Origin: Escherichia coli
GTDB taxonomy: Bacteria > Pseudomonadota > Gammaproteobacteria > Enterobacterales > Enterobacteriaceae
Strand: one strand, 5' to 3'
Length of the DNA: 64,000 bases
NCBI RefSeq assembly: GCF_024223415.1
Contig: NZ_CP100500.1
Below the pieces are notes generated by a model. That model saw only the letters and a program-made list of their open reading frames with translations. It made no database searches and was not told the origin of the DNA. Shown in pieces: positions 50,434-51,840 of the stretch (its first letter is position 1; the number at the start of each line of letters is the position of its first letter). The position numbers and the translations under genes are program-made.

Positions 50434-50699
50434 AAAAATCCCTCTACACTGTGTTTGTATACAGTGTTATTTTTAACTGTATGGATAAACAGTGTCAAGA
50501 GGAACGGAACGCCAAAAGGTGATGTGTTTTTGTTACCATTATTTACAAACAGAAAAACCCCAGACTGTGAAATCTGGGGTTTTTATAAAGTGCACGTGCA
50601 TTTCACGTGTATATTTTTGTCTTGTTCAGGTCTGTTTGTTGTCTGGTCAGTGTCCGTAATTATCTGTTTTTATTGTCGATGTCCGGTTGCAGTCCTGTC

Positions 50700-50760
50700 A
50701 AAAATGGTGGAGCTGGCGGGAGTTGAACCGGCGAGCCTTTCGGCTCCCCCATGCGCCCCA
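50700..50760 (-). other. fragment resembling the 3' end of ssrA (tmRNA); att-like remnant
   Basis: Minus strand reads ...ggagccgaaaggctcgccGGTTCAACTCCCGCCAGCTCCACCA, matching my recollection of the tmRNA 3' terminus; upstream part does not match ssrA; coordinates approximate. Confidence 0.5.
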
Positions 50761-50811
50761 CAATAATTCATATGTGCGCGTGCATACGAGAAAAAACACT
50801 TGTTATATCTG

Positions 50812-51421
50812 CTAAAGCTGCATCAGCCTTTCCACCAGTTGTTCTTTACGGGCAACGAGCCAGCCGTGTTGCTCCAGATAAAATTTAAACCGTTCCAGAG
50901 TGCATACCATCGCATCGGCGGGGACTTTTTCTGTGAACTCTACCTGACCGTGTTTATCAAAGTGGATCAGTAATGCGCATCCATCATTTGGGGTGGGTGA
51001 GTTTTGTGTTGCTGGTGGTTGTTTTTGGCTGAAATAACAGTCTTCCAGTTTTTCGAACACTTCCCATGCCTGATCGGTTTCGAGCATTTTGGCATGGCGG
51101 GCTGCGCCACGTTCTGTCCAGAGGATAAGGGAGCGGGCATTTTTACCAACTAACCCGATTGTTTCGGGTCTGTTCTTAAACTCGCGTAATTCGTTTTTTT
51201 TCAATTTTAAAGTAATGCTTTCCTACCACGAATCGCGTCGTGTTGTTCAGAAAGTTATCAGAAATGTTTTTGATTTTTGTTCCGTATAACTGCGCCAGAA
51301 GTTCAGTTGTAATAACGGGGACCTGGTTGTGGGTGATTGCAGGAAGAGTGTCGACAGAAATTTGAGTGGGCATAACGATAACTCCGTACATTTGAAAATT
51401 ATCGCCACCTTCAGGTTCCAA
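50812..51421 (-). pseudogene. Rha-family phage regulatory protein, apparently split into two overlapping frames
   Basis: ORF 51176..51421 (N-terminal part) and ORF 50812..51204 (C-terminal part) overlap in different frames; assignment to Rha family is tentative. Confidence 0.4.
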
Positions 51422-51439
51422 TCATCATGGTGGCGAACT

Positions 51440-51500
51440 GTGCGGGGTTGGAACTACCGGGTACGGAAACCGGCGAGCCTTTCGGCTCCCCCACACAGCC
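51440..51500 (-). repeat. second copy of the ~24-bp core shared with the ssrA-like fragment, in a tRNA-like context
   Basis: ccggcgagcctttcggctccccca occurs at ~50728 and ~51470 as a direct repeat flanking the Rha-like remnant; coordinates approximate. Confidence 0.45.
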
Positions 51501-51840
51501 CGCCATAAATCGCGAATGTGACTGTGCAAACGATATGAAAAAAGACGCGGGCGCGTCTCATATCGCTCCGTAAACATCCGGGGTTCCAATCCCGACGCCA
51601 GATTTTGCTGACGCGTTGGAAATATAGCCCCGGAGGATAAAAACTGTCAACGGGTAAAAAATTTCCGTTATCAGGAATGTATAAAATTAAAGCAATCGAT
51701 CAAAAAATCCTTTCTGCAAAACTAAAAAAGATTTCAATAAAATCAGGCAGTTAAAAACGCTGAAAAACGGTATAAAAAAGCATCTCAAAATCCTGTTTTT
51801 TCTTTCAGATACAATATCTTATTTGATTTTTTAAAACCTG

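Follow-up and report, generated by a model that had tools for sequence, protein, structure and literature searches.

A truncated C4 gene adjoining an ssrA-type attachment core at the right end of an Escherichia coli prophage inserted in ompW

A short interval of the Escherichia coli genome, comprised between a dinI-like gene and a displaced fragment of ompW, contains a sequence resembling the 3' end of the tmRNA gene ssrA, a direct repeat and a regulatory gene split into two frames. How did these items come to lie side by side? The initial annotation took them for the att-proximal debris of a further integrative element, possibly one targeting an ssrA-like site, left inside the end of a composite prophage. 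The interval was analyzed within the 64,000-nt stretch of DNA to which it belongs, hereafter the window, and its features are collected in Table 1. The explanation that best accounts for the whole, and that is probably correct, is that a lambdoid prophage with attR in ompW has its right end here, made of two parts joined by an old recombination event. As a recombination scar at the end of a prophage, the locus is ordinary and well explained.

Positions 20663-54747 of the window are collinear with the Ch1 ompW prophage. The notion that the window matches Ch1 throughout had to be abandoned, as the left 20 kb belong to a prophage on the yecE side; the sole integrase gene of the window (4672..5985) lies beside yecE. 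Native ompW prophages end in the order Rha/ant, C4, isrK and ompW remnant. On the opposite side of the interval, the ssrA-type piece continues without a break into dinI and the main prophage's late region. The LexA-box consensus is CTGT-N8-ACAG, and two palindromes near dinI fit it; both overlap a promoter-like site for dinI (TTGACA-18-AAAAAT, 50498..50469) found by promoter scan.

Table 1. Features of the interval between dinI and ompW, with neighbouring genes (window coordinates).
Feature	Coordinates	Strand	Evidence
dinI-like gene, 82 aa	50185..50433	-	ORF; phrog_189 DinI, E 3e-26; RefSeq 'DinI-like family protein' in identical Ch1 sequence
P' arm (dinI side) of attP of ssrA-integrating lambdoid phages	50434..50704	-	alignments
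Two LexA-box-like palindromes, CTGTGTTTGTATACAG and CTGTATGGATAAACAG	50449-50464 and 50477-50492		read from sequence
att core, 25 nt identical to the ssrA 3' end (GGTTCAACTCCCGCCAGCTCCACCA), T-loop to CCA	50705..50729	-	alignment; partial tmRNA match
Truncated C4' gene (repeat copy 1), first ~43 nt of a second C4	50726..50768	-	alignments; weak C4 match, 20.9 bits
isrK-type terminator T-run and 28-nt spacer preceding C4' in other phages	50769..50798	-	aligned with PhiR12_1 and VT2phi_272 C4 loci; identical in E24377A
ant, ORF6N N-terminal domain, frameshifted	50812..51373	-	ORFs; Pfam; phrog
C4 target sites in the ant leader: b2 TTGGAAC (51421..51415), a2 GTACGGA (51389..51383)	51383..51421	-	complementarity
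Full-length C4 antisense RNA gene (repeat copy 2)	51426..51510	-	Rfam RF01695
isrK sRNA, equivalent to a1/b1 decoy sites, with its own terminator	51538..51614	-	Rfam RF01394
Promoter-like site for isrK-C4-ant, TTGACA-18-TATATT (11/12)	51621..51650	-	promoter scan; ends 7 nt before isrK start
Displaced ompW 3' fragment, prophage attR	51835..51960	+	RefSeq pseudogene in identical Ch1 sequence; ORF 51844-51960 ending ...SAGYRF

A direct repeat of about 24 bp, with copies some 740 bp apart, had been noticed in the interval and read as a signature of integration. The repeat is there: an exact core of 26 nt (AACCGGCGAGCCTTTCGGCTCCCCCA, which includes the 24-mer first reported) is embedded in 44 nt that are 84% identical between 50726-50769 and 51468-51511, at a spacing of 742 bp, and an exact repeat of this length within 3.3 kb is far beyond chance. 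It does not correspond to an att duplication, however. By covariance-model match and alignment, the repeat is the conserved 5' half shared by two paralogous genes for C4 antisense RNAs (RF01695; 78.9 bits for copy 2, 20.9 for copy 1, against a gathering score of 45). Copy 2, read from 51510 to 51426, covers the model in full (positions 1-87 of 87). Its minimum free energy structure reproduces that of the family, a long outer stem plus two hairpins (-49 kcal/mol, z -5.7), and its a' and b' segments are complementary to target sites located upstream (a1/b1) and over the ribosome binding site of the downstream gene (a2/b2). Copy 1, hereafter C4', is homologous at model positions ~1-43 alone. It keeps the 5' strand of the outer stem, hairpin 1 and the 5' arm of hairpin 2, and is devoid of a complete hairpin 2, of a' and b', and of the 3' strand; its fold is not significant against shuffled sequences (z -1.4). 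C4' is a truncated gene, and not a member of the C4 family. IsrJ, the Gifsy-1 sRNA encoded downstream of anrP, was considered as a source of copy 1 and discarded, being absent from the window. An att-like repeat of this kind is unfit for delimiting a mobile element.

Judged by the order of its components, the minus-strand segment running from 51650 to 50812 is an antirepressor control module of the P1 immI/Gifsy-1 isrK type, in which a promoter, isrK (a1/b1 sites plus terminator), C4, the b2/a2 sites over the ribosome binding site and an ORF6N antirepressor gene (ant) follow each other. The isrK match reaches 72.7 bits, above the gathering score of 50 of its family. The related c4-a1b1 model (RF03163) hits the same place with 44.6 bits, marginally below the gathering score of 46.7. 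The decoy sites in isrK are b1 (51589..51583, a 7-nt match to C4) and a1 (TACGGA, 51572..51567, a 6-nt match). In the leader of ant, b2 and a2 each feature 7-nt complementarity to C4, at positions 57-63 and 44-50, respectively, and a2 overlaps the Shine-Dalgarno GGAG of ant. The stretch between the repeat copies is not what an ssrA-targeting element left behind, as had been supposed, but the isrK-C4-antirepressor module native to ompW-integrating prophages. The regulatory function that we infer is by analogy with the known systems: C4 would be excised from a read-through transcript of isrK-C4-ant, and its a'/b' segments would pair with a2/b2, keeping ant untranslated; isrK would serve as decoy or activator, and the ant product would inactivate a prophage repressor.

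The regulator lying between the repeat copies is indeed broken into two frames. The minus-strand ORFs 51421..51176 and 51204..50812 make up a single gene (51373..50812), interrupted by one extra A in an A8 run at 51194-51201; deleting one A restores a continuous protein of 186 aa. The label given by RefSeq to the identical Ch1 sequence is 'ORF6N domain-containing protein, frameshifted'. The gene is intact (186 aa) in 13 of the 15 RefSeq genomes exhibiting this structure, namely strain 135 and 12 others. The break amounts to a change of one base in a homopolymer, which most sibling genomes lack. Because ant is frameshifted here, the isrK-C4-ant module may be inactive in this strain. The frame-corrected protein matches the ORF6N domain (PF10543, E 2.5e-20, residues 13-96) and, over its full length, the anti-repressor family phrog_2379 (E 2.6e-93, residues 1-186). 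The original description of the split gene as Rha-like has to be revised, since Pfam gives ORF6N alone, without the Phage_pRha domain (TIGR02681/PF09669). The 3' third of ant is 91% identical at the DNA level to the 3' end of a gene annotated by RefSeq as 'Rha family' in other ompW prophages.

In the Gifsy-1 prophage of Salmonella the isrK promoter drives anrP, and IsrK controls anrP translation (Hershko-Shalev et al. 2016, PMC4825925). The isrK-orf45-anrP segment of Gifsy-1 and the module of the window share order and orientation, as both carry isrK (RF01394), a C4-type RNA over the 'orf45' stretch and an ORF6N antirepressor gene, and are 81% identical at the DNA level, anrP region included. 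The surroundings differ. The Gifsy-1 module follows antQ in the nin/Q region and is in turn followed by isrJ, whereas the module of the window sits at the prophage end by attR in ompW, has a frameshifted ant, and is followed by a truncated second C4. The immI region of P1 and P7 (a1/b1, c4, a2/b2, icd, ant) provides a further term of comparison. The C4 of the window fits RF01695 over the full length, and its a'/b' segments are likewise complementary to sites upstream, in isrK, and downstream, over the ribosome binding site. In contrast to P1 and P7, an icd-like gene is missing, the antirepressor is an ORF6N protein and not P1 Ant1/2, and the c4-a1b1 match stays just under threshold.

The other part of the region is of the ssrA type. 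The plus strand at 50705-50729 is the reverse complement of GGTTCAACTCCCGCCAGCTCCACCA, and 25/25 nt coincide with the annotated ssrA gene of strain 8479 and of CP-1639; the claim that the minus strand carries sequence resembling the ssrA 3' end is borne out by the alignment. The last 25 nt of ssrA alone are present: the tmRNA model (RF00023) is matched in part, at 22.5 bits (local E 9e-7), short of its gathering score of 47, and ARAGORN, run on the whole window, reported no tRNA or tmRNA gene at the locus. Past the CCA the sequence continues into the P' arm, 80-88% identical to the DNA located directly 3' of intact ssrA in strain 8479, CP-1639 and PhiR12_1. The arm includes a bidirectional terminator (50553-50584) and the sequence CACGTGAAATGCACGTG (50590-50609), a candidate arm-type site for the integrase, which recurs in the PhiR12_1 P arm. 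Intact ssrA followed by the same ~270 bp and by dinI is found in CP-1639, in O157:H7, in strain 8479 and in several hundred further genomes; a sample of 60, spread over the 568 genomes hosting the block, showed it next to an annotated ssrA gene in 53 cases.

An ssrA 3' segment followed by a phage arm, as observed beside the restored gene in three ssrA lysogens or phages, is thus what the locus contains. The likeness to the attP and attL of ssrA lambdoid phages (CP-1639, PhiR12_1 and the O157:H7 ssrA prophage) involves the same 25-nt core, from T-loop to CCA, and the same ~270-bp arm reaching dinI, at the level of identity reported above. The 5' side is different. DX6, for comparison, carries a complete attP; in the window the core is not flanked by ssrA, nor by a P arm with the cognate integrase, but by half a C4 gene and the ant module, and the prophage occupies ompW, with an att of the ompW type. 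The hypothesis of debris from an ssrA-targeting element therefore stands in part: the ssrA-like sequence does come from such an element, of which 50434-50729 represent the dinI-side arm and the core, but it is not a separate element inside the prophage, being contiguous with dinI and the late region.

The state preceding the joint is preserved in other strains. At ompW, E24377A, PapM-36-2 and DS26-1 have, in succession, ant, the 13 nt found in the window at 50799-50811, up to the ant stop codon, the T-run, the spacer, a full C4' and a partial second ant (ant'), and as far as the joint their identity to the window is 98.9%. In E24377A this identity extends from the ompW remnant through isrK, C4, ant and the spacer to the first ~26 nt of C4', the full-length C4' orthologue scores 58.4 bits with RF01695, and ant' is followed by hydrolase and tail-fibre genes; in their place the window has the ssrA core, the P' arm and dinI. 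E24377A keeps the uninterrupted ancestral arrangement of ant, full C4' and partial ant'. The C4' of the window is interrupted past the 5' arm of hairpin 2, before the loop, and at that point joined to the ssrA-type core and the dinI-side arm. The tetranucleotide GGTT (50726-50729) is common to C4' and the core, and marks the crossover interval. The joint, GCTCGCCGG/TT/CAACTCCC, coincides with the start of the block of identity between attP and ssrA, as in the attP of DX6 or in PhiR12_1, the P arm of which reads ...GGATACGGGTTCAACT. On alignment, GGTT falls at the T-stem/T-loop boundary and at the 5' edge of the attP/attB identity block, hence plausibly within the crossover region. Prophages located at torT (Rb-23) and prfC (MFDS1019527) show this block fused, again at that T-loop position, to a second, independent partner, a dinI-like terminator ending in CTGCGGY.

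The hybrid joint has been identified in only 15-18 nearly identical E. coli genomes, and therefore reflects a single event. An exact scan for GCCGGTTCAACTCCCGCCAGCTCCACCA gave zero matches in the IMG/VR viral contigs and zero in a collection with one genome per species, and the joint is therefore not a widespread element. The reciprocal product would consist of the P arm ending in GGATACGGGTT followed by the 3' half of C4' beginning with GGTTTCCCGGTAGTTCC. In the window, both the C4' 3' half and the 5' part of the ssrA core are absent; the pattern CGGGTTGGTTNNCCGGTAGT retrieved only chance matches in unrelated taxa from the viral and species-representative collections, and a synthetic query made of the P arm and the C4' 3' half met no place with at least 80% coverage in 5,426 complete E. 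coli genomes. The reciprocal joint could have been lost by later homologous recombination.

The nature of the parts and the place of the joint are established by these comparisons; most likely, we infer, the joint was produced by integrase-mediated recombination at a secondary site. In the ancestral prophage a second C4 gene came after ant, an order that E24377A retains. A tyrosine integrase of the ssrA type may have recombined its attP with hairpin 2 of C4', which resembles a T-arm and would have acted as a secondary site, after which homologous recombination between the genomes of both phages would have yielded a single composite prophage. Crossover in or beside the T-loop defines a recognised class of tRNA and tmRNA att sites (PMC4383910; PMC1762012).

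The same parts could have been brought together by a different joining mechanism, that is by illegitimate, integrase-independent recombination between C4' and an ssrA-type att region at GGTT or CGC-GGTT. These 4-8 nt of microhomology are found exactly at the joint and could serve equally well, no reciprocal product was retrieved from the window or from any of the collections searched, and C4' is no exceptional match to the ssrA core. In an ungapped comparison 18-19 of 32 positions are identical, and 33 sites of the window score at least 18; the idea that C4 is an unusually good mimic of the core was dropped, and, similarity being so unremarkable, C4' is not an outstanding pseudo-site by sequence alone. 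A break placed 0-4 nt from the 5' edge of the attP/attB identity block is, however, what site-specific exchange predicts, and not what is expected of a random break, and in the torT and prfC prophages a second, unrelated partner meets this block at an identical T-loop position. Illegitimate joining is possible on these grounds, though rather doubtful. Far less credible, and indeed very unlikely, is the reading first proposed, by which the ssrA-like stretch represents the native 3' fragment, now displaced (an attR scar), of an island once inserted in chromosomal ssrA and relocated with its debris. What follows the CCA is not chromosomal DNA, but the phage arm leading to dinI, as in attP and at ssrA-proximal junctions; no integrase or other island gene is found beside the stretch, and the other flank is a C4 gene native to ompW prophages. 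All this outweighs the fact that a lone tRNA or tmRNA 3' fragment usually marks the end of an island (PMC4383910). A single gene flanked by a direct repeat may also evoke a 742-bp mobile cassette, carrying the regulator and bounded by 24-26 bp repeats acting as attL and attR or resulting from target duplication. Such a cassette is so improbable as to be nearly negligible: the two copies correspond to one and the same 5' portion of a gene for a structured RNA, their homology beginning at RNA position one, a complete second C4 occupies the place of copy 1 in E24377A, and the intervening gene regularly follows C4 in Gifsy-1, Stx phages and ompW prophages.

The joint may also be looked at as a gene in its own right, the 5' half of C4 being fused to the T-arm and the acceptor 3' strand of tmRNA in a functional tRNA-like or tmRNA-like chimeric RNA. 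Pairing is possible between the 5' GGGGC and GCUCC-ACCA, the third pair being a G-U like that of tmRNA, and the minimum free energy structure has a 7-bp terminal helix. C4 precursors, besides, are described substrates of RNase P. Transcribed by read-through of the ant operon and trimmed by RNase P, the chimera would give rise to a tRNA-like RNA of ~60 nt with a G-U third acceptor pair, which could bind SmpB or be charged by alanyl-tRNA synthetase, interfering with trans-translation; there is hardly any likelihood that it does. Nor is the chimera itself anything other than extremely unlikely to be functional. The fold is no better than that of shuffled sequences (z -1.4, versus -5.6 for true C4 copies), a C-C mismatch interrupts the T-stem, ARAGORN reports nothing, and the tmRNA score is far below threshold. 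The sequence is moreover limited to the 15-18 near-identical genomes, and neither the viral nor the species-representative collections contain it. As for its 5' strand, this came unchanged from ordinary C4' alleles; the conjecture that it co-varied to pair with the ssrA 3' strand was rejected, as the strand is almost unchanged from such alleles and the fold does not exceed shuffles. In a milder reading, tRNA-like C4 genes might be recurrent secondary att sites for T-loop-specific tmRNA integrases, and one route by which att modules are swapped among lambdoid phages.

Whatever the joining mechanism, the case records at base-pair resolution the union of att-proximal modules from two lambdoid phages with different sites, ssrA and ompW. 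If integrase-mediated recombination at C4' is the correct reading, a T-arm-like hairpin of a phage antisense RNA served as pseudo-attachment site, and the locus is a small, concrete example of site-specific recombinases driving phage mosaicism. The locus is of value for annotation as well, as it holds two curated RNA genes, isrK and C4, plus a truncated third. In RefSeq, these genes are unannotated, overlaid with an 'ash family protein', or left as 'none'.

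The feature specific to this locus is a chimeric joint, a mosaic formed at a phage att site, whose ancestral state is kept elsewhere. It lies in the first copy of a 44-nt direct repeat (84% identity, spacing 742 bp), the only long one detected by repeat search in the region 49500-52800; the repeated 24-mer of the initial annotation falls within its 26-nt exact core. Over the second copy, Rfam scan of the window places a full-length C4 antisense RNA scoring 78.9 bits against a gathering score of 45; this copy accordingly represents the 5' half of a genuine C4 gene, whose RNA folds as the family structure (-49 kcal/mol, z -5.7). 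Copy 1 matches C4 weakly (20.9 bits) and tmRNA in part (22.5 bits), and its fold is not better than that of shuffles (z -1.4). An alignment with the C4 loci of PhiR12_1 and Stx phage VT2phi_272, and with the window's two other C4 genes, shows copy 1 to be homologous from an isrK-type terminator T-run through a 28-nt spacer and on into C4, whose first ~43 nt it retains as far as ...GGCTCGCCGGTT; right after this it changes over to ssrA sequence. Because truncated, this second C4 gene (C4', located 3' of the antirepressor gene ant) falls outside the C4 family. Hence the direct repeat consists of the common 5' half of two paralogous RNA genes; both copies being C4 by Rfam and alignment, it is no duplication generated by integration.

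Resemblance to the tmRNA 3' end, in turn, is real, since alignment with annotated ssrA genes shows GGTTCAACTCCCGCCAGCTCCACCA, found in the window as its reverse complement, to coincide base for base with the final 25 nt of E. coli tmRNA. Core and flanking DNA, the dinI-side P' arm of attP, are 80-88% identical to DNA directly downstream of intact ssrA in ssrA lysogens, and strain 8479 and CP-1639 share the order smpB, ssrA, ~270 bp, dinI, tail fibres. Arm and core were retrieved by sequence search from 568 of 5,426 complete E. coli genomes; annotated ssrA adjoins them in 53 of 60 carriers sampled across these 568, O157:H7 EDL933 and Sakai-type strains included. Because the DNA 3' of the CCA is phage arm, and not chromosomal, the ssrA fragment is a phage-borne, attP-derived copy of the core rather than a displaced native fragment. 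The piece fails tmRNA membership, and is not a complete attP, P arm and integrase being absent. The arm hosts a bidirectional terminator and a motif, CACGTGAAATGCACGTG, which recurs in the PhiR12_1 P arm and may be bound by integrase as an arm-type site; in the form ACGT(G/A)AAATGCACGTG it is found in both arms of ssrA-type attP, and does not vary among the four phages aligned. The notion that the segment comes from an ssrA-targeting element holds for core and arm, which match ssrA lysogens, but not for the repeat, which is C4, nor for the module between its copies, which is native to ompW prophages.

Features of the window and of compared loci (L numbers denote loci with their own coordinates)
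Feature	Location	Strand	Remark
ES036 (CssrF) sRNA	1628-1670	-	Rfam; ordinary chromosomal feature
Integrase, left flank	4672..5985		
ORF with Rha-type domain	12700-13380		
Second isrK and C4 pair	12775-12963	+	left prophage part
Two phage tRNA genes	20686-20839	+	downstream of Q
Collinear with Ch1 ompW prophage	20663-54747		
Arm and core, similarity to ssrA lysogens	50434-50733		
Motif CACGTGAAATGCACGTG	50590-50609		in PhiR12_1: L009 ~70-95
tmRNA 3'-end-like sequence	50705-50729	+	
Direct repeat	50726-50769 / 51468-51511		
ant, two overlapping ORFs	51421..51176 and 51204..50812	-	start codon at 51373
A8 run in ant	51194-51201		
GTACGGA	51389..51383		complementary to C4 44-50 (UCCGUAC)
TTGGAAC, 3' of C4	51421..51415		complementary to C4 57-63 (GUUCCAA)
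C4	51510..51426	-	
isrK	51614..51538	-	directly upstream of C4
TTGGAAC, in isrK	51589..51583		complementary to C4 57-63 (GUUCCAA)
trp operon leader	60270-60363	-	Rfam; ordinary chromosomal feature
torT fusion, Rb-23	L025 ~1533-1600		
prfC fusion, MFDS1019527	L029 ~1632-1740		

The ancestral arrangement is found in E24377A, whose ompW prophage carries ompW remnant, isrK, C4, ant, the same 13 nt, T-run, spacer, C4' and a partial second ORF6N gene. There C4' is complete (58.4 bits); the window is identical to E24377A as far as hairpin 1 of C4', then enters the ssrA core. E24377A, PapM-36-2 and DS26-1 match the window at 98.9%, from exactly the joint through ant. All junctions containing CTCCCGCCAGCTCCACCA were lined up, and read ...GGACGCGGG TTCAA in ssrA lysogens, ...CGGACGCGGG TTCAA in the complete attP of the DX6 tandem array, ...GGATACGGG TTCAA in the PhiR12_1 P arm, and ...GGCTCGCCGG TTCAA in the window. 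The window joint falls inside GGTT, at the T-stem/T-loop boundary, where attP/attB identity starts. Hairpin 2 of C4 (GCCGG, loop, CCGGT) is T-arm-like (compare GCGGG TTCAACT CCCGC). Prophages residing at torT (Rb-23) and prfC (MFDS1019527) also carry this core and arm, fused there at the identical position to another sequence, the end of a dinI-like gene with its terminator (...CTGCGGY TT(Y)AA). In Rb-23 an HK022-like core (CTTTAGGTGAAA) lies ~310 bp beyond the fused core and arm.

How the joint arose is plausibly explained by integrase activity. Sites in tRNA and tmRNA genes with crossover in the T-loop or T-stem are a recognised class, the exchange region being thought to be the 7-nt loop (PMC4383910; PMC1762012). 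Most likely, an ssrA-type integrase would have recombined attP with C4' used as a secondary site; duplicated parts and the reciprocal joint would then have been lost when the resident ompW phage and the incoming one underwent homologous recombination. Integrase involvement is favoured by the position of the joint, at the core edge, and by the use of that very position for another, unrelated partner. Three observations count against it. Searches of the window, of complete E. coli genomes and of viral and species-representative collections yielded no reciprocal joint; the match of C4' to the ssrA core is unexceptional by simple identity; and the hybrid joint is confined to 15-18 near-identical genomes, most of them from chickens, and therefore reflects one event. 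Illegitimate joining mediated by microhomology at GGTT is a serious, though less likely, alternative to integrase action. It is highly improbable that a tRNA-like RNA bearing a tmRNA acceptor end is made from the chimera, as the fold is unremarkable, the T-stem has a mismatch, and the distribution is very narrow.

The regulatory gene noticed in two frames between the repeat copies does consist of overlapping ORFs, and is a single ORF, ant, whose frame is broken by a surplus A in a run of eight. The frame-corrected protein (186 aa) carries a Pfam ORF6N domain (E 2.5e-20), and matches end to end the phrog_2379 antirepressor family (E 2.6e-93). Among 15 RefSeq complete genomes with the structure, two (Ch1, GF4) share the A8 allele and the other 13 lack one base, strain 135, where ant is annotated as intact (561 nt), being one of these; the split thus reflects either recent mutation or an error in sequencing the homopolymer. 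Upstream, isrK scores 72.7 bits (gathering score 50), and is preceded by a promoter-like, near-consensus TTGACA-18-TATATT ending 7 nt from its start; an overlapping c4-a1b1 target motif is slightly below threshold (44.6 versus 46.7 bits, Rfam). The GTACGGA site overlaps the GGAG before the ant start codon. Other ompW-integrated prophages (TUM13881, K_EC180) terminate with Rha/ant, C4, isrK and ompW remnant, and the isrK-C4-ant module is therefore native to the ompW integration module. ant is mosaic: the first two-thirds of the gene, with C4 and isrK (51026-51632), are similar at 81-85% to the Ant loci of Stx phages and the AnrP locus of Gifsy-1, and the last third (50813-51028) and the C4-to-attR stretch (51433-51840) share ~91% identity with the 'Rha family' module found in other ompW prophages.

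All components belong to described families, namely C4 (RF01695), isrK (RF01394), ORF6N antirepressor, DinI and ssrA-type att core. From established knowledge and Rfam family descriptions, we take the architecture to be that of the P1 immI region (a1/b1, c4, a2/b2, ant). The same order is found in Gifsy-1 (antQ, isrK, C4 over 'orf45', anrP, isrJ), where anrP is driven by the isrK promoter, and IsrK turns on its translation via orf45 (PMC4825925).

In TUM13881, a 91-aa 'ash family protein' CDS (RefSeq; L003 3554-3829, window ~51400-51640) lies exactly over isrK and C4, and its Pfam Phage_ASH match (PF10554, residues 9-83, E 3.5e-14) covers just these RNAs. Either Phage_ASH is in large part structured RNA read as protein, or this DNA encodes both; the short 'orf45' in the corresponding Gifsy-1 stretch has been reported as translated (PMC4825925). 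The window hosts two and a half C4 modules. The second isrK (63.6 bits) and full C4 (84.3 bits) reside in the immunity/replication region, within an ORF that goes on to encode a sub-threshold Rha-type domain (TIGR02681, residues 117-212); the real gene start is probably 3' of C4. RefSeq relatives label the whole ORF 'ash family protein', Ch1 'YdaT'.

The window is a hybrid, with torZ-cmoB-cmoA-yecN-yecE and an integrase gene on its left side and ompW remnant, yciE, yciF and trp on its right. It is collinear with the Ch1 ompW prophage only over 20663-54747, from just before the phage tRNA pair, which suggests that a yecE and an ompW prophage recombined, inverting the DNA across the replication terminus and leaving a hybrid prophage. 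The joint of C4' and ssrA core, wholly within the ompW-derived part, is unaffected. The phage tRNAs are Met (CAT) and Lys (TTT) according to ARAGORN; in Ch1 the first is tRNA-Ile in RefSeq, the CAT anticodon being taken as Ile2.
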